From contig MEDX01000006.1 of NCBI GenBank assembly GCA_001724245.1, positions 1-64,000 on the forward strand: DNA of 64,000 nucleotides, read 5' to 3'. Both the position numbers and the translations under genes were made by a program. The notes beneath the pieces are model-generated. The model was given only the letters and a program-made list of their open reading frames with translations, did not search any database and had not been told where the DNA came from. This document shows positions 1 to 51,727 of the stretch, piece by piece (position 1 is the stretch's first letter; every line of letters begins with the position of its first letter). The stretch comes from Fonticula-like sp. SCN 57-25. Taxonomy: Eukaryota.

Positions 1-167
1 ACGACGGAGATGTGCAAATGGACGATCGGGGCGTTCGGCATCGCCAGAGTGACAGCGAAGAAGAGGAGGAGGAACAGGGTAGCCGCAAGTCTAAGAAGAG
101 TGCCAAGAGGGGAAAGGGAAGCAAAGGAAAAGACGTGTCATCTCGCTTCTTTGATGACATTTCATAG
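1..167 (+). CDS. 3' end of a gene starting upstream of the window; acidic/basic tail ending ...SRFFDDIS*, possibly WDR55/JIP5-like
   Basis: Frame from position 3 is open: DGDVQMDDRGVRHRQSDSEEEEEEQGSRKSKKSAKRGKGSKGKDVSSRFFDDIS, TAG at 165-167. A terminal FFxD(L/I) after a K-rich tract resembles WDR55/Jip5 tails (recall only). Confidence 0.55.
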   Translation, partial: DGDVQMDDRGVRHRQSDSEEEEEEQGSRKSKKSAKRGKGSKGKDVSSRFFDDIS

Positions 168-339
168 ATTTTTATCGTGCTTCCTTACATCCATTGTTGT
201 ACATTGCATTGCATTCGTTTACTTATTGGCTTGTTTTTACCGATTCAATGCATAAGAGGACAAATTTCGGACGACGGTTTCATTCATTGTTTGACGGGAT
301 GTCTGTGAATCGAGTCGGTCGCGTTGAGTCTTGCTGGGG

Positions 340-1080
340 CGTGTACCGGTACTGCGTACAAAAGGGAACAACACAAAAGAACAGTGCCACGAGGCACATT
401 TCACACTATTTTACAAGTTTTGACCAGTTGGGGATACCTAAGAGGCGCGTGCGTTGTCCTGTTGGCGTGGGCGTCCTGCCAGCCAGCTGTAGTGCGCGCT
501 ATTGGTCTAGCGGCACGTGTGTGCGCGTGTCCTGGCGTTGACTTGATCGAGGGCGTCGTCTGGACCGATGGTCGACCACCGATAAGGGGTGGGGTCGGAC
601 GACGATTACTGATGACCGTGTGACAGTGTGCCGAGCTTGTATTGCGACGCAAAGGAAAGAACACAAGAGAACAAGGTGCCACGAGGCAATTCACAGTACT
701 TATACAAAAGGCTCAACCAGTCGGAGATAAGCTACGCGGCGTGTACGCTTTCATACTGGCGAGGGCGTCCTGCCGGTCAGCTACAGTGCGCGTTATTGGT
801 CCTGCGTGTGAACGTCCTAGTTAGTTGCCTAGCTCGTGTGCTGGGTCAGCGATGGTGTCGACTCGATCGAGAGGCCGTTGTCTGGGCCGATTGTTGACCG
901 TGACGGTGATTCCTGATGACCGTGTGCAGTGGGTGCTCATATCTCCGCGAATACTTGTCGTAGAGCGATGGTTCAGGGGTCATTCGAGAGCTCGCGACGA
1001 GACGAGTCGAGTGGTATCGCTCAGGAGGGCGGTGCGGGCGGTGCGGGAGGGCACCGGCATGTGCAGGGGTGTTGGAGTTT
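340..1080 (+). repeat. Left arm of a modular inverted repeat (two diverged ~290-bp tandem units plus an inner module)
   Basis: 340-620 and 620-925 share motifs (AACACAAnAGAACA..GTGCCACGAGGCA, GGGCGTCCTGCC, CTGATGACCGTGTG). 738-819 is an exact reverse complement of 2561-2642. Confidence 0.9.
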
Positions 1081-1949
1081 GTTCGTTTGGAGTAGATTTC
1101 GGTTCACTTTGGCAGCTGCTATCGTGGTAGCCCTGGATTGGGGGAACTTCGGGGCTAAGGTTTACTTACACATGGGCGGCAAAGTAACTGAGAAGCAACA
1201 ACACTCGTTTGTTGTAATAGCATACAGTTCTTGAGCGCCTATGCAAGCATAGTGTCCCTTCTAATGCACTTAGTGTCCAATGTCATTGCTTTTGAACGTA
1301 ACTTTTCTGTGGGTGAGTGGCCTGGTTTAAGAGGTAGATAGGTATGGGCGGAAATTTTTGTGCGAAAGTGTGGGAGCAAAATAAACGCATTCCCGCGGTA
1401 TGTGGTATCGGTGGGTCTAGGTCAAGCTGGCGTCAAAGTCTGACTCAAAGACCGGCCACCCTGTTCAACAACAGCTTGGCCGAGAATATTGTCTCTACTA
1501 ATACAAAGTTTCGTTCTATATGACGAAAAGGGAATCCGATGCACCTAGTGCCTCTTAATTTGGACCAATCGCGACGATTGTTTCTTCGTCAGATTATGGG
1601 GATTGGTTGATGACAAAAATACTGATGCATTGAATTTGTTCATTAATCCACATCAAAATAACACGTTTCAAACCTCGAGTATGGAAGTGAATGAAGGTCT
1701 CTCGTCCCGGGAAGCCAGCTAGTTCCACGCTGCTTCACTACTGTTCAGTGCATGACTCGAGAAGGATGCCCTCCGTCGGGATGTCTTTGCCTATGAATAC
1801 GGTGTTGAACGGGGGTTTCGTGCGAGCATTTTTTACCCAATTTTACCCACCCAACAGACCGAGAGGTTCTGAAGGCGCCACCATCAATCACCATGTTCTC
1901 TTTGCGTGATTCCGAACGACACTCAGCGAGAACTGTCAGGCGCAACACC

Positions 1950-2855
1950 AATCACTCCTACACCCCCTGTACCACGCGCGACTCTGTCCTGAGTGGCATC
2001 ACTTGGCTCGTCTTGTCGCGAGCTCTCGAACGACCCCTTAACCATCGCTCTACGACGAGTATTCGCGGAGATATGAGCACCCGCACACCGGGTCATCAGG
2101 AAGCATCGCCCGACGCCACCCCTCATCGGTGGTCGACCAGCGGCCCAGACGACGCCTTCGATCGAGTCAACACCAGGACACGCGTACACACGTGCCGCTT
2201 GTCAGGACATTCGCACGAAGGACCAACAACGCGCATTACAGATGGCAGGGCGTCTACAGCATTAGAACGACTGTCAGGAATCACCTCTACCAGTCCTGCA
2301 CGGGTCGCGCCCTCTGGCTTCACGCACAGCACCTCCATAAGCGATATCATTCGACTCGCCTCGTCACGAGCTCTCGAACGCACTGTGAATCATCGCTCTA
2401 CGACAAGTATTCGCGGAGATACGAGCACCGGCGACACACGGTCAACAGGAGTCGCCGTCCGATCCCTTCACGGTCAACAACCATCAGCCCAGGCAACGGC
2501 CTCACGATCGCGTCGACACCATCGCTGACCCGGCACATGCGCACACACGTGCTAGGCAATTAGGACGTTCACACGCAGGACCAATAACGCGCACTGTAGC
2601 TGACCGGCAGGACGCCCTCGCCAGTATGAAAGCGTACACGCCTCGTAGCTTATCTCCGACTGGCTGGGCCTTTTGTATATAGCTGTTGTGTTCTTTCCTT
2701 TGCGTTGCAGTACAAGCTCGGCATACTGTCACACGACGTACACGACTCGCAGCTTAATCTTCGACCAGTCGAGCCCCTTGTGTATGCCTCGTACCATGGC
2801 ACTGTTCTTTTGTGTTCTCTCCTTTGCGATATTATACAAGCTCGGCACAGTCACA
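1950..2855 (-). repeat. Right arm of the modular inverted repeat
   Basis: Reverse-complement matches: 1987-2082 to 931-1026, ~2091-2199 to ~510-618, ~2341-2735 to ~620-1020, plus a partial extra module at 2735-2855. Confidence 0.9.
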
Positions 2856-2975
2856 CTCTTCCCATAGAAATCGGACACTCAAAACTCACTCGCCACCCTG
2901 TTCGTAGAGGCTTGCACAAGCGACTGGGACAATAATAATCGGGAACATCAATAATTCATTGAACAATAAAAAGTG

Positions 2976-4539
2976 CTAACTCTCAATGAAGCGCGCAAGC
3001 ACTCCTCTAACGAGTCCGCTCACAGTATCGGTTTCATTCTCATAATAGTGCATTACCACGGCCATGGCAGCCATAAACATGGCGGTCTCTCCGTGCTTAA
3101 CGCGGGCAAAAAGCTACGAAAAAAGTAAGCAAATGGTGCAGTGAAGAAAGTAAGTCGCCGAACCTTATGGTCTGCCAGAATATGGAAAAGGCTGTCTGCA
3201 CCGCGGGGAAGCGCATACATAGCAAGCTCCGCACGTCGGCTCTCCCTCTCAATGAAGATCGACAATGACGAGAAGATGCCTGCAAACCAATACACAAACT
3301 TGTGGTCCGTTTTCACATCGGCAAACCTATGAAAAGTCACTGGTGAGGCAAATCAATAGCGATAACGGCTCTTACCCAATACCAAGTAGGCGCCGGTGCG
3401 CGCTAATGAAAAACATATAAAGTGCAACGAATGCAGCCAAAAATGTTGTCGACCTTGCCGCTGACAAGACTCCCTTTACAAGCATGCCAATTGGATCTTT
3501 AAATACTCGCGAGGTCTGCATGAGCATCACTGGGACAAAGGTCAGACTCAAGTATAGAGGAATAACCTTGCCAAAAGAGTCCAGGAAAACCTTGACGGCT
3601 AAAAAGTTGTCAGCAAAGAGCAGTGAGACTTGAGCCCAGCGAACCATTGAGGACTATGTTGGCCTGAGCTGGATGTAGGATGTAGTTGGGAATATACTTT
3701 GGGAACTGGTCAGTTATCATGCGTGTTCCACCCTTCTTGAGAGCGTAGGCGTTCAGGCGATCCACGTCGATAGGCTGTCCTCGAATGTTCTTCCGCACAT
3801 TCTCAAGAACCATGCCGTCGATGGGTCCACTATAGAAATCACCGTCAGCACTTCGACAGCAAGCCAATACAATACGCACGTTTTGACGATGAATTTGTAG
3901 TAGGATTCTGGGATCGACTCGGGCCGAAGCACGTAAGCATACATAACCTGAGCGGATGCAAGCATGAAAAGTAGTGCGTCGCCATGACGGAGGGTGTCCG
4001 GAAGGAATGAAAACTTGCCACGGCTCTCTAGTGCATTGAACCCGCACTGCAACGCCCTATGTCCCACAAAATCAGCTGAGCCTCGTCTGACCGCAAAGCA
4101 AAAACAAGGCATGTCATTGCCTCGTGCGCAAATGAAGAACGCACCTGACAACCATATACTGAGCAAGAGTGACCCTTGTGTCCGGGTCGAGAGCTAGAAT
4201 GGCCAAACCTGCTACAGATCCTGCGATAGCGGCGTTCGATTTCGCTTGTTCTCCACGCGCTCTCCGAACGACTCCGAGGGCGGCTCGATAAATACCCGCA
4301 AACCCACCAACAAAGGCGCCGAACCGCACGCACTCGGTGTTCAGAAAAGACTTCTGCAGCGCGGCGAGCAGGGACACCTTCCCACGCAAAACCGACGTGA
4401 TCTTGAGCAGGAAAAAGAGCACCGAGCGCGCAGTGTAAGCCGTCAATGCACCTTTGGCACCGGTGATTACCCCGCGCAGCACGTCTGAAGCATACGATCC
4501 GCTGCCAGGAGCAGGATCTCGCTGCTTTGATAGAGACAT
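2976..4539 (-). CDS. TMEM135: TMEM135/PMP52-like multi-pass membrane protein (5 exons)
   Basis: Spliced ORFs give VRFGAFVGGFAGIYR, AIAGSVAGLAIL, HGDALLFMLASAQVMYAY and SIFIERESRRAELAMYALPRGADS. ATG at 4539; last exon ends ...ARFIES*, TAG at 2976-2978. Confidence 0.8.
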
Positions 4540-4909
4540 TTCCTCCAACAGCTAAAGCTTGGCAACACTGTAGTGGTGTGTGTTGGTGTTGGTGTGTGTG
4601 TGACTGGCCACGTGATCGTCAATTCGATCAATGCGGATCACAGCATCCCATATGGATGGATAATGGTTTACTGACGTTCTAATGCCTATTATACTGCTAC
4701 GGCGACGGCACGCAATACGACCACTTTATTCCCACAGACCGTGCAAGTTGCTCAAACCACAAATGCGGTTTCACAATTCTGACGCGCTAGCAATGGGTCC
4801 AAGCTGCCTCCATCAGATTCATGCATATTCTGGATTAATTCATTCATTACAGTACAATATGGGTTGAATTGCCTAGAAAAGATCGGAGCAAAACTATCTA
4901 GGGAGATGT

Positions 4910-19301: not shown

Positions 19302-21025
19302 TTACTGGTTCGCCGCGGCCGGCGATTTCGAGAACCCCTTGGACATAATTTCTACATCCTCCTTGCTCTCATTCAGTGTCTCGACGAGGCACCGGATACC
19401 ATCCTGGTGCTGAGCAAGCGACTAGACAAAGCCAAACATGTGAGACGAGCAGCCAAAACAGAAAATGCCACAGCGTACGCTTGAGATCGCAGCGAGGGCT
19501 GTCTCATCAGTAATATTAAATGCTTCCTCGTTGCTTCGGCTCCCGCGCATCGACTTTTGTACATCAACAAATGCTTCGAGCTCCCTAATGCGGCCCTCAA
19601 AGACGGTAGGCTTGTTAAGCTCTTGATGAAGTGTTTCAAGCTGTAGGCGAAGGGCCTCCTCCTCGGGCTGAAGCACGTACACGCGATTGCGATGAACTTC
19701 TAGCATGCGCATGATCTTTGCCAAAATTGTTAGCTTTGCTCTATCGCACGGCCAAATGTGGCAGCCGCGGCATACCTTGATAAAGCGCTGGAAAAACTCC
19801 TGATGCCGCTGCCGATACTCCTCAAGCTTAATGACAGTTTTCTCGTGCATCTTCCCGATGGATTCTAGCTTTTCATCAATGGTCTAGATCGCCGTCCGTT
19901 AGCGCGGTACATTAGCAAAACGATAAAGACGCACTCGTAGCCCGCCCAAATGCTTCTGGGTCTGCTTGTCCTGCATATCAGCCCGCTTCTTCAGGTCCTC
20001 AAACCCAGTCGCCGCCACCGGATAGAGCCGCTCGGGGTCGGGATTATTCACATTGGCATGCTGCAGCATGGTGGGATCCATATTGGCGTGTTGGTATGAC
20101 ACGCCTGGCTCGCGCACATTGTAGAAAAAGCACTGAAAAACCAGAACAGTGAGGAACACGCAAAAATGCAGAGGAGGCATACGCGAAGGCGATTCTTGAT
20201 ACGTGCCGAATCAAACGTCATCAAATCGAGATCTGTTATGCTATCAGCCGGAATGACGGGCGCAGCAAGAGGGCCCGCGTTTCCATATGAAGGCGCAACG
20301 GCTCCAGCTGCGGTCGATCCGAACGCACCACTGCCGGCTCCAAAACTGCCAAAGCCCTGTTGTCCGCCAAAAGATGCACCACCAAAACCACCACTTGCAG
20401 GGGCAGCACCAAATCCTCCAGCAGCGGGTGCAGCACCAAAGCCTCCAGCAGCGGTCGAGGCACCAAATCCACCGGCAGCAGGTGCAGCTCCAAATCCTCC
20501 AGGTGCAGCCGATCCAAAGCCTCCAGGTGTGGCAGACCCAAATCCTTTATTGGCAGGGGAAGCACCGCCAAATCCTCCAGTAGCACCAAAACCGCCAGTA
20601 GCCGAACCAAATCCTCCTGTAGCGGGCGCAGCACCAAAACCTCCGGCAGCGGGAGCGGCACCAAAACCTCCAGCAGCGGGAGCGGCACCGAAACCTCCAG
20701 CAGCAGGCGCAGCACCAAATCCTCCTGCAGCAGGCGCGGCACCAAAACCTCCGGCAGCAGGCGCGGCACCGAAACCTCCAGTAGCGGGAGCGGCACCAAA
20801 ACCTCCTGCAGCGGGAGCGGCACCAAAACCTCCAGCAGCAGGCGCGGCACCAAATCCGCCGGCAGCAGGTGCGGCACCAAATCCACCGGCAGCGGGTGCG
20901 GCACCAAATCCACCGGCAGCGGGTGCAGCACCTGGCTTGCCAGCAGCAGAACTAGCACCAAAACCGCCTGCCGCTGAGCCGCCAAACCCCCCAAACCCGC
21001 CTGCGGGAGCTCCAAAGGACGCCAT
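19302..21025 (-). CDS. NUP54: FG nucleoporin Nup54/Nup57
   Basis: Long GGFG repeat N-terminus, CFFYN..NNPDPERLYPVAATGFEDLKKR, C-terminal coiled coil ending ..HQDGIRCLVETLNESKEDVEIM..*, TAA at 19302-19304. Confidence 0.9.
20609..20932 (-). repeat. 12 x 27-nt coding tandem repeat (GAAPA[A/T]GGF)
   Basis: Translation shows (GAAPAAGGF)5-GAAPATGGF occurring twice. Confidence 0.9.
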
Positions 21026-30807: not shown

Positions 30808-30879
30808 TCCCCTTTGGTCTAGGGGTTAGGATTCAAGACTCTCACTCTTGAGGCCCGGGTTCGATTCCCGGAGGGGGAA
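30808..30879 (+). tRNA. tRNA-Glu(CTC), followed by genomic CCA (30880-30882) and a T6 Pol III terminator
   Basis: Acceptor stem TCCCCTT/AGGGGGA, A box TGGTCTAGGGG, anticodon arm CAAGA-CT CTC AC-TCTTG, T arm CCGGG-TTCGATT-CCCGG; 72 nt. Confidence 0.97.
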
Positions 30880-31088
30880 CCATTTTTTGGTCTTTTTTTT
30901 GCTCATTGGGACAACAGACAGCACTGGGATGAAAGTACGGGTAACTGCTCCAGCGGTGTGAACTTTTTTATTTGCATCAATCCTCTGTGGTAAAAAAAGA
31001 CTCTGAAAAGCGTCGCAAAAGATTTTTGTCTGCTGCAGAAAGCTGCAAAAAATCTACTACTATCACTAAAAAAAGTGCAAAAAAATGG

Positions 31089-31160
31089 TTCCCCCTCCGG
31101 GAATCGAACCCGGGCCTCAAGAGTGAGAGTCTTGAATCCTAACCCCTAGACCAAAGGGGA
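31089..31160 (-). tRNA. tRNA-Glu(CTC), identical second copy with genomic CCA (31086-31088) and a T7 terminator
   Basis: Exact reverse complement of 30808-30879. Confidence 0.97.
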
Positions 31161-48824: not shown

Positions 48825-51727
48825 TCAGTTGGCTGACTCCTCCGCCTTGTTGGAGCCCCACTTTGTCTTGTGCTGCTCGTGGCCAAAGCCCTCGTCGTAG
48901 TTGCCCTTGAGCGCAAAGAGCTGCTTAAAGTGGGGCTTGCAAAAGTAGGTGCCGCGAATGGCGGCGTAGCTGCCGAGAGATAACGTGCGGTTGCACTCGT
49001 GGCAGCGGAGGCACGTCTTGTGGAAGACCTTGCCGTCCGCGCGCAGCTCGTCCATAGGATAGACGGCCTTGTTACATACCTCGCACGACGGCGACGCAGC
49101 GGCGCCGTACTTGCGGGCGGCCACGGGGGCCTTGGTCTCGGCAGCGGCGACCGCGGCGGCGACCGGCTTGCTGGCGACCTCGGGCTTCACGGCAGCGACC
49201 GTCGGCTTGGCGGCGGTGACCGCGGGCTTGGCCGCCGTAACAGCGGGCTTCTCGGCCTTTTCGGGCTTCTCGGCGACCTTTTCAGCGGGCTTCTCCGCCT
49301 TGGGCTCGGTGTGCACCACGGCATCAACAACCTTCTGCTCCTCAATCTCTGCCTTGATATCGGTGTGCTCGTGCTTAATCTCGTGCTGCGGCGGCGGCCA
49401 CACCTTGCCAGCAATGCCGACGGGCTTGGCCACGGGCTCCTCCTTCTTGGGCTCCTCCTTCTTGACCTCCTCCTTCTTGACCTCCTCCTTCTTGGGCTCC
49501 TCCTTCTTGGGCTCCTCCTTCTTCACGACAACCTCCTCCTTCTTGGCGGGAGCCGTCGACGTCGGCACAAAGCTCTTGATGGCGGCCGTGACGATAACTT
49601 CAGGCTTGGCGTCGGCGTGATCGCCGTCCTCCTTGCCCCACTGCGTCTTGTGCTGCTGGCGGCCAAAGCCCTCGTCATAGTTGCCCTTGAGCTTGAACAG
49701 CTGCTTAAAGTGCGGCTTGCAGTAGTACTGGCCGCCGAGCGCGGCAAACTTGCCGAGCGACAGGACGCCCTTGCATTCGGCGCAGCGGAAGCACGCCTTG
49801 TGGAAGACAATGTCCTCGACCTTGATCGAATCGAGCATGTAGGCGGCCTTGTTGCACACCTTGCACAGAGGGTTGGAAGGCGCGGGCTGAAAAATGCAGT
49901 GGGTTAGAAAATCGCAAACAGAAAGTAACCAAGACAAAAGCGCACCACGCGAGAGAACGCAGCGACGCGCTTGGCCGTGATCGACTCCTCAGCCGCGGCG
50001 GGCGCAGCGGCGGCAGGGGCGGCGGCGGCGTCCTCGACAACGCTCGTGGGGCGCGCGGCAGTGGACGACTTGAGGCGGCCACGCACAGAGGCAAACTCGC
50101 TCGCCTCCTCGGCCTCCTTGGCAGCGTGATCCGCCTTGGCCTTGACCTCGGCCTTGCGCTCCTCCTCGCGCTTGCGCTGAGCCTCCTCGGCCTCCCTGGC
50201 CTTGGCCTCGGCCGCGGCCCTCTCCTCGGCCTTCTTCTGGGCATCCTCGGCCTTCTTGTGCTCGTCCGACTCCTTCTTGGCCTTCACCTCAGCCTCAAGG
50301 CGCTCCTCGGCCTTCTTCTTGGCCTCGGCCTCCTTCTTGGCCTTCTCCTCGGCCTCCTTTGCCTTTGCCTCGGCCTCCTTCTTGGCCATCGCCTCGGCGG
50401 CCTTTGCCTTGGAGCGCTCAAGGGCGGACTCCTTCTCCTTGTCGGCCAGGGCGGCGGCGGTCGCGGCGGACGCCTCAGCCTCCTTCACCGATGCATCAAT
50501 CGCGTGCTGCTTCTCAACAGTGGCGTAGTCGGCAGCGTCAGTAGCCTGGGCCTTGGCGATCTCGACGGCATCATCGATGGCGTGCTGCTTCTCGGCATCG
50601 GCGTAGGCGGCGGCGTCAGTCGACTCGGCCTCGGCATAAGAAAGCTTCTGCTGAGTCTGCTCGTCCTTCTCGGCGACGGCGAGCGAGGCGGCACGAGCGG
50701 CCTGGAACTCGGCAACCTCAACAGCCTCGTCAATAGCATGCTGCTTCTCGGCATCGGCGTAAGCAGCGGCGTCGGCAGCCTGGGCCTCAGCGTTATCAAT
50801 CTTCTCCTGAATCTGCTCGTCCTTCTCGGCGACGGCAAGGGAGGCGGCACGGGCGGCCTGGAACTCGGCGACCTCAACAGCCTCGTCAATAGCATGCTGC
50901 TTCTCAGCATCGGCGTAAGCAGCGGCGTCGGCAGCCTGAGCCTCAGCGTTGTCAATCTTCTCCTGAATCTGCTCGTCCTTCTCGGCGACGGCAAGGGAGG
51001 CGGCGCGGGCGGCCTGGAACTCGGCAGCCTCAACAGCCTCGTCAATGGCGTGCTGCTTCTCAGCATCGGCATAGGCAGCGGCGTCGGCAGCCTGTGCCTC
51101 AGCGTTGTCAATCCTCTCCTGAATCTTCTCGTCCTTGTCATTGACAAAGTACGACGCAGCGCGGGCGGCCTGGAACTCAGCCTCTTCGATGGCATGCTCC
51201 ACGATCTCCCTGCGAATCTCCTCCTCGGCCTCCACCAGCTCGTAGTCGTCCTCAATCAAGTGCGCCTCGATGGCGGCCTCAACCTCGGCCTCCACGGCCT
51301 CCTCGATCTCGCGGTCGTGCTCGGCATCGAGATTCTCGTGCAGCTCAAAGGTCTCCTCCTCGTTGGTCTCGGCGACCTTCTCAAGCGAGTCGGCCTCGAC
51401 AATATCGTCGGTCGACTCCTCGACCTCGATTTCGTCGTCGTCGCCCTCGAGCTGCTTCTCGATCGCCTCGCCGATCGCCTCGCCGACGACGCCCTCGACG
51501 GTCTTGATGATCTCTTCAGAGATCTCGACGCGCGACGAGTCGGCCTTGGGTGCCTCGAAGGGATCAGCATCCTCGTCGGCGAAAAGCTCGTCAAACTTGG
51601 CAGACGACTTTTGCTTGGCCTGCATCTTCTTGGTCTTGGGCGCCTCGGCGACGACCGGGCTGCTCATGACCTCCTCTGCAGCAGCAGCGACGTCGGCAAT
51701 CAAAGCGTCGTCCTCGTGTTGCGACAT
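48825..51727 (-). CDS. Two-LIM-domain (EPLIN/LIMD2/XIRP2-type) protein with long acidic, repetitive helical N-terminus
   Basis: Two LIM domains, each followed by [20 protein letters not shown]; KVWPPP motif between them. One intron (about 49888-49944, GTGCGC..CAG) joins the 607-aa and 370-aa ORFs in frame. Confidence 0.88.
50520..51200 (-). repeat. 156-nt (52-aa, 2 x 26-aa) coding tandem repeat, about 4 copies
   Basis: Identical DNA words recur 156 nt apart (for example TCCTGAATCTGCTCGTCC at 50805 and 50961). Unit: [52 protein letters not shown]. Confidence 0.92.

Follow-up and report, generated by a model that had tools for sequence, protein, structure and literature searches.

The intergenic island described here occupies positions 168–2975 of the window (the whole stretch of 64,000 nucleotides that was analysed) and is made up of two arms in inverted orientation around a unique core, with the coordinates collected in Table 1. 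As the preliminary description had pointed out, the gap is unusually large, exceeding all 231 other non-coding gaps measured (median of 372 bp, maximum of 2251 bp). The convergence of the flanking genes, also reported there, stands on the right side, where the gene lies on the minus strand and matched PF02466 with an E value of 5.4e-5, short of the curated cut-off, whereas the left gene is only an open frame ending at 167, for which the Pfam search gave no match. The inverted arms and the unique core were found to be real. The inverted match 738–819/2561–2642 is perfect (82/82) and is the longest perfect one in 1–3300, and the block 931–1026/1987–2082 is identical at 86 of 96 positions. The third block is also real (509–622/2084–2199, 88% over 116 columns), but as first described, at 510–618/2091–2199, it was one base out of register, with an identity of 20/109. 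Overall, the arms are only about 79% alike over 445 columns (617–1036/2323–2735, E = 7.5e-114) and are internally rearranged. The core had been said to lack a recognisable ORF, and no coding segment was found in 1080–1950 with a codon model trained on the window, which recovered 12 of its 13 training frames; within the 749 contigs (9.5 Mb) of the assembly (G000), this segment matches only itself. The core had likewise been called AT-richer, which holds against the arms (46.8% vs 57% GC), but its GC is only slightly under that of ordinary non-coding DNA (48.6–50.4%). Three long frames over the right arm were treated as spurious, none giving a Pfam match better than E = 0.02, and no Rfam family was found in the island or in 7 other loci. 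Elsewhere in the window, two tRNA-Glu(CTC) genes at 30808–31160 form an inverted pair (96% alike over 105 nt), and degenerate tandem repeats at 20380–20993 and 50430–51181 lie within long open frames that have no Pfam match.

Table 1. Features of the island and of its flanks, in positions of the window.
Feature	Positions	Strand	Details
Putative left host gene, 3′ end	1–167	+	open frame 3–167, TAG at 165–167
Old truncated module A copy	343–618	-	profile positions 22–327, E 8e-57; sense strand outward from core
Module A copy (putative solo LTR), left arm	619–1085	-	E 9e-132; outer end intact, inner end decayed
Left partner of probable arm-to-arm gene-conversion tract	701–822		includes perfect 82-mer 738–819
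Core, unique and non-coding (about 0.85 kb), a candidate for CENP-A binding	1086–1933		single assembly match, single-copy depth
Old module A copy, inner part, right arm	1934–2271	+	profile positions 134–450, E 2.5e-74; TGTCAGG start at 1934
Target-site duplication CGAC, left copy, 4 bp	2268–2271	+	
Young module A copy (putative solo LTR), 462 bp, TGTCAGG…CTGTCACA	2272–2733	+	inside older copy, same orientation; perfect 4-bp duplication
Right partner of probable conversion tract	2558–2679		97% complementary to 701–822
Duplication right copy (2734–2737) and outer part of interrupted old copy, GTCACA end	2734–2855	+	profile positions 8–137, E 7e-18
Right host gene, spliced, 3′ end toward island	2976–4548	-	minus-strand coding segments from 2982; weak Tim17/Pmp24-family match

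Module A and the other mobile elements

Both arms are stacks of a module of about 470 bp with TGT…ACA ends, termed module A. The BLASTN comparison of the arm with the assembly that had been proposed as a check was run, and the left arm gave at least 46 matches, spread over 28 contigs; the module always lies in similar islands free of genes. A profile of the module recovered 53 pieces, with one island per contig. Outside the islands, it gave a single match of E = 0.087 in 519,045 bases of island-bearing and control contigs, and 10 LTR queries gave none in the same non-island bases, so that the LTRs are confined to large intergenic clusters. The module measures 456–495 bp and has sharp ends (TGTCAGG…GTCACA), with 9 of the 12 listed copies starting TGTC and 10 of the 12 ending GTCACA, and it carries near its 3′ end what we take to be TATA-like and AATACA signals. 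The left-arm copy at 619–1085 matches 11 other full-length copies at 71–87%, the truncated copy at 343–618 finds its best non-self match in the old right-arm copy (88% over 116 columns), and the young copy at 2272–2733, which is 95% alike to the one on C492, splits an older copy cleanly, with CGAC on either side. Perfect 4-bp target duplications were found in 1 of 14 two-ended copies, and 3 of the 4 bases agree in 2 more. Many copies have a partial copy after them, a pattern that would fit nested insertion followed by recombination. When the left copy was compared with the young right copy, 4 mismatches were counted in 122 sites (701–822 vs 2558–2679, boundaries picked after the fact) against 54 in 312 over the rest of the pair, which suggests recent arm-to-arm conversion; local assembly collapse at the 82-mer alone may be an alternative source of this tract.

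LTR families B–G are also present in the islands. The LTRs of families B and E start with TGTGAC, end with TCACA and contain AATAAA, and 4-bp duplications were read by eye in 3 of 4 whole copies. In C492 and C118, the family E LTR is followed by a TTGGCGAC-like primer-site motif, with gag next in C492, and the same TTGGCGAC-type motif follows the LTR of the intact gypsy element C710. Remnants of gypsy gag or pol were found in 4 islands, and these match elements with the protease-RT-RNaseH-integrase order, not Ty5/copia. A reading of family B as pointing inward was reversed by the primer site, AATAAA and the position of gag. Because another island LTR family carries the primer-binding site and gag of a Ty3/gypsy element, module A itself is very likely a Ty3/gypsy solo LTR, with the link to an internal domain resting on the sister families and not on A. 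Such solo LTRs share with the island copies the TG…CA ends, TATA-like and AATACA/AATAAA sequences near the 3′ end, 4-bp duplications and nested insertion, and the difference is that no primer site, polypurine tract or internal domain is attached to the module A copies. Module A shows a weak resemblance to family B in sense orientation (mean z of 2.1, maximum of 5.1). The full-length module A element may be absent from the bin; a metagenome scan for the module gave 6 loci, 3 of which are the same islands at 99.9%, and no full-length element, and 0 matches were obtained in viral contigs. Copies in another assembly (L080 and L082) have no near-identical match among the G000 loci examined and would be either additional islands or differences between strains.

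Open gag and pol are present in two Ty3/gypsy elements (L070 on C500 and L071 on C710), each assembled as a circular contig of about 5.9 kb; Pfam matched no chromodomain in them, module A was rejected as their LTR since no match was found, and the LTR of C710 occurs nowhere else in the assembly. Gypsy sequence is also present outside the islands, as a C466-type remnant lies mid-contig in C2 (L134, G000:C2, about 32 kb), in a piece with a GC at fourfold-degenerate sites (GC4) of 0.763. In another metagenome, a transposon with a 782-aa frame (L081:832–4490; DUF7869, E = 4e-9), which its motifs lead us to presume Sola-like, lies on the core side of module A at a distance of 270 bp, and its relatives occur at 27–49% identity on 6 contigs of G000. 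Module A was also rejected as the TIR of this element, which has its own 44-bp TIRs, and tRNA-targeted insertion was rejected after ARAGORN found no tRNA gene in 34 island or element loci. Frames of about 1600 aa on C727 (L074) and C700 (L075), with a protein-primed type B DNA polymerase beside an integrase-core match, are Polinton-like, and TACTG-type short repeats lie within the family G element of the C431 right arm (L039:3880–4100).

Recurrence, polarity and synonymous GC

Some 17 separate cores can be made out, and island pieces occur on up to 31 contigs. In ten two-armed islands, the cores measure 548–1726 bp (mostly 0.55–1 kb), and in C38 and C117 only 177 and 89 bp, respectively, lie between opposed LTRs. 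No core matches another, the window core giving no BLAST match at E < 0.05 to 12 other core segments, and a search for a shared core motif yielded nothing convincing beyond a mild enrichment of GA repeats and CACCTA/CCACTCA. The arms, mosaics of 0.5–1.2 kb, are about 66–79% alike across the core and are shared between loci. Module A stands on both sides in 5 islands, with an arm likeness of 66–78% in the four besides the window, and several islands pair module A in one arm with another LTR family in the opposite arm. Two islands on one contig were not found in the sequences examined; the 749 contigs of the assembly, of which the island bearers reach at most 73 kb, are short for counts per chromosome.

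In a polarity table built by hand, 12 of the 13 contigs with LTRs in both orientations were strictly divergent, all left-pointing LTRs lying left of all right-pointing ones (p = 0.002). Relative to the assigned core, 79 of 82 LTR pieces point outward and three inward, a count that is partly circular for one-armed contigs and in which tandem pieces are not independent, and a pol remnant in C118 points inward. As a check, the 16 one-armed module A contigs were followed in both directions: outward, a called gene is reached in 15 of them; inward, 13 continue to the end of the contig and 3 cross 1.7–3.7 kb. The genes flanking the islands face either toward or away from them, and the polarity therefore follows the core, not the neighbouring gene. 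With the LTR sense strands running outward from the core, the two arms consequently form inverted repeats. The window holds one of some 17–31 islands built of polarised, probable Ty3/gypsy solo LTRs, the LTR identity, the recurrence and the polarity all being absent from the preliminary description.

GC4 was found to rise with distance from the island, with values of 0.664 within 2.5 kb, 0.717 at 5–10 kb, 0.772 at 20–30 kb and 0.80 beyond 45 kb; it was 0.809 in 8 control pieces (long island-free contigs) and 0.77 at island-free contig ends. All 14 contigs with sufficient data had lower values near the island than far from it (p = 1.2e-4), and the gradient persisted at three score cut-offs and under a model-free ORF rule (rho 0.33–0.44), where the farthest bin falls back to 0.664 (8 ORFs). 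C479 and C166, which were found via other LTRs and lie outside the fit, gave 0.666 and 0.619, respectively. The trough is uneven, with a positive slope in 13 of 17 contigs and none on the right side of C5 (0.79). It spans 30–45 kb around islands of about 3 kb, and non-coding GC is flat beyond 2 kb. In several yeasts, according to the accessible text of PMC2997560, GC3 troughs with retrotransposon clusters mark centromeres, intergenic troughs are much weaker, and C. albicans is without them.

A candidate centromere and its alternatives

The host is an intron-bearing eukaryote. Over most of its length, the C-terminal frame of its SMC4 shares about 49–55% identity with zoosporic fungi and Mucoromycota, with ascomycetes and equally with cnidarians. 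A tree was built from this query together with 32 of the 120 matches listed, chosen for spread and none named Rozella, aphelid or nucleariid; the query lies on the fungal side, unplaced. The 18S rRNA was not found, and a search for Vps39 homologues gave no placement of the organism.

The island is considered a probable small regional centromere, with polarised LTR stacks as its inverted repeats and predicted CENP-A binding, in a deep-branching opisthokont of the fungal side. The centromere idea of the preliminary description gains from the GC4 trough centred on the islands, from unique cores of similar size, from the confinement of the repeats to the islands and from a CenH3-like gene, but the arms are not near-identical. 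This gene (L141, G000:C32:15141–15509, +) encodes a divergent, intron-split H3 variant with a longer loop 1 and 62% identity to H3 over 71 residues, a putative CenH3 by the features known from such variants. The number of islands weighs against the centromere reading, as 17–31 of them in 9.5 Mb would mean many small chromosomes.

In the mechanism proposed, Ty3/gypsy retrotransposons would integrate next to the core, often within LTRs already there, and would be reduced to solo LTRs, the clustering and nesting being visible in the islands. Their integrases would seek centromeric chromatin, and the core of about 0.55–1 kb would carry CENP-A. The most likely cause of the polarity would be selection on an essential core, purging inward LTRs; transcription from an inward LTR would enter the core, and such an LTR and the other arm would make up a direct repeat through which the core could loop out. 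Occasional arm-to-arm gene conversion would renew the symmetry, one probable tract lying in the window. Suppressed crossing-over would weaken GC-biased gene conversion and so produce the observed GC4 trough, a cause proposed by analogy with yeasts.

At the same centromere-like site, polarity may instead be set at integration, the integrase being steered by a polar cue such as forks from an early core origin or asymmetric kinetochore chromatin, a possibility held more tentatively. Single copies of families B and G, which have no recombination partner, still point outward, as this explanation would have it, and within 2 kb of the core the skew of non-coding DNA is symmetric on its two sides (-0.04 to -0.10); however, the skew fades by 3.5–6 kb, may be decayed LTR sequence and has the sign opposite to that of the C. 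albicans centromeric origins in the available portion of PMC2924309. Tn7 and IS608 are known to have an orientation bias coupled to replication forks, and the insertion of Tf1 requires polar fork arrest, as stated in the part of PMC5371812 that is accessible. Patches of non-centromeric heterochromatin, or transposon sinks, in which recombination is reduced locally appear improbable as a reading of the islands. Such sites would accommodate the gathering of several unrelated mobile families, including the Sola-like DNA transposon, an island count that is high for a chromosome number and the trough missing on one side of C5. Nevertheless, a unique, repeat-free core of similar size would not be expected of a plain sink, nor would LTRs polarised about that core whichever way the genes run, nor troughs that extend over tens of kb around islands of 3 kb. 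The 34 loci scanned hold no tRNA gene.

The foldback idea of the preliminary description, taken here as a non-autonomous element or long-TIR DNA transposon whose terminal repeat would be module A, would suit the inverted modular arms and the 5 islands with module A on both sides but is largely refuted and now scarcely credible: the arms are stacks of separately inserted LTR-like units, module A inserts alone with its own duplication, the cores are unrelated, no shared element-level ends were found, several islands have another LTR family opposite A, and the Sola-like element beside A has TIRs of its own. Subtelomeric repeats are very unlikely as well, despite the many module A copies near contig ends and the low GC3 also reported at C. 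lusitaniae telomeres in the accessible text of PMC2997560, as genes lie on both sides of the islands in C5, C14, C75, C76 and C431, and the TTAGGG arrays (probable telomeres) on 3 contigs, G000:C561, C608 and C699, accompany no island. There is equally little likelihood that the inverted structure or its 82-nt perfect match is an assembly artefact. This is a short-read metagenome assembly whose contigs often break at island repeats, and no single run contig crosses the whole island, but the divergence between the arms is about 20%, another assembly contains three other islands at 99.9%, and in run X1, possibly the source sample, one contig covers 983–2036 with both arm/core junctions at single-copy depth and another bridges the insertion junction, both without differences. 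Parts of the core were also found in runs X4 and X5 from two other studies (the runs are labelled bioreactor, aquatic and fungus metagenome), with differences of 10/508 in the core vs 5/1506 in flanking gene pieces for X4 and 1/302 vs 1/1225 for X5, counts too few to use. Three opposite-strand joints across runs bear on a core-orientation polymorphism between strains, and paralogous copies could also give them.

Relation to known centromeres and significance

The IR centromeres of Komagataella phaffii, Candida tropicalis, C. parapsilosis and S. pombe are described, in the accessible sections of PMC5010909 and PMC12711049, with inverted arms around a non-repetitive core and with signs of arm-to-arm conversion, as found here. 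The cores of K. phaffii are similarly unrelated between loci, but its arms are 2.0–2.7 kb long, virtually identical within a centromere and unrelated between chromosomes in the same portions of these sources, whereas the arms here are LTR-like mosaics of 0.5–1.2 kb that are not near-identical. With the Ty5-cluster centromeres of Scheffersomyces stipitis, Debaryomyces hansenii, Ogataea polymorpha and Wickerhamomyces canadensis (LTR-Wc), the islands share nested LTRs in one large intergenic region at the bottom of a GC3 trough, to the extent given in the available text of PMC2997560 and PMC12711049. They differ from them in being of gypsy type, not Ty5/copia, in their size of 2–4 kb and in the polarisation of the LTRs about a unique core, and the O. 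polymorpha clusters are described, in the same available text (PMC2997560, PMC12711049), as without IRs. The polarised LTRs of the islands contrast with a 325-species atlas (10.64898/2026.09.17.752431), the accessible part of which describes a tendency of the repeats in transposon clusters to occupy both strands. The proto-point centromeres of Saccharomycodes ludwigii, in the text available from 10.1101/2025.04.25.647736, have a small core and flanking LTRs and fragments 62–95% alike, with flanking motifs described as inverted; the core there is, however, a short AT-rich CDEII and the element Ty5, whereas the core here is longer, with about 47% GC, and no shared motif was found. This comparison was made by text, and the LTR maps of Sa. 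ludwigii could show the same polarity, in which case the novelty would be lower. In layout the islands resemble an IR centromere and in content a Ty5-cluster centromere, but they miss one defining feature of each, namely near-identical arms and Ty5 identity.

A literature search confined largely to papers outside subscription gave no description of polarised LTR arms around a core or of centromeres in zoosporic fungi. The islands bear on the origin of IR centromeres and on their relation to retrotransposon-cluster centromeres; in the accessible text of a 2025 yeast survey (PMC12711049), IR centromeres have no visible link to LTRs. The islands may, with about even chances, represent a candidate centromere type of a deep lineage on the fungal side in which several gypsy families continually generate inverted repeats, with LTRs pointing outward from a sub-kilobase CENP-A core, as a living intermediate between transposon-cluster and IR centromeres and possibly through centromere- or origin-guided oriented integration. 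Inverted repeats apparently built of LTRs would point to a testable route, consisting of centromere-seeking insertion, a polarity filter and arm-to-arm conversion. The trough hints at meiotic recombination in the host organism. For this uncultured, early-diverging lineage, the finding would give candidate centromeres and a rough chromosome number, and the combination of polarised LTR islands and a GC trough would offer a way of finding centromeres in fragmented eukaryotic metagenome assemblies.
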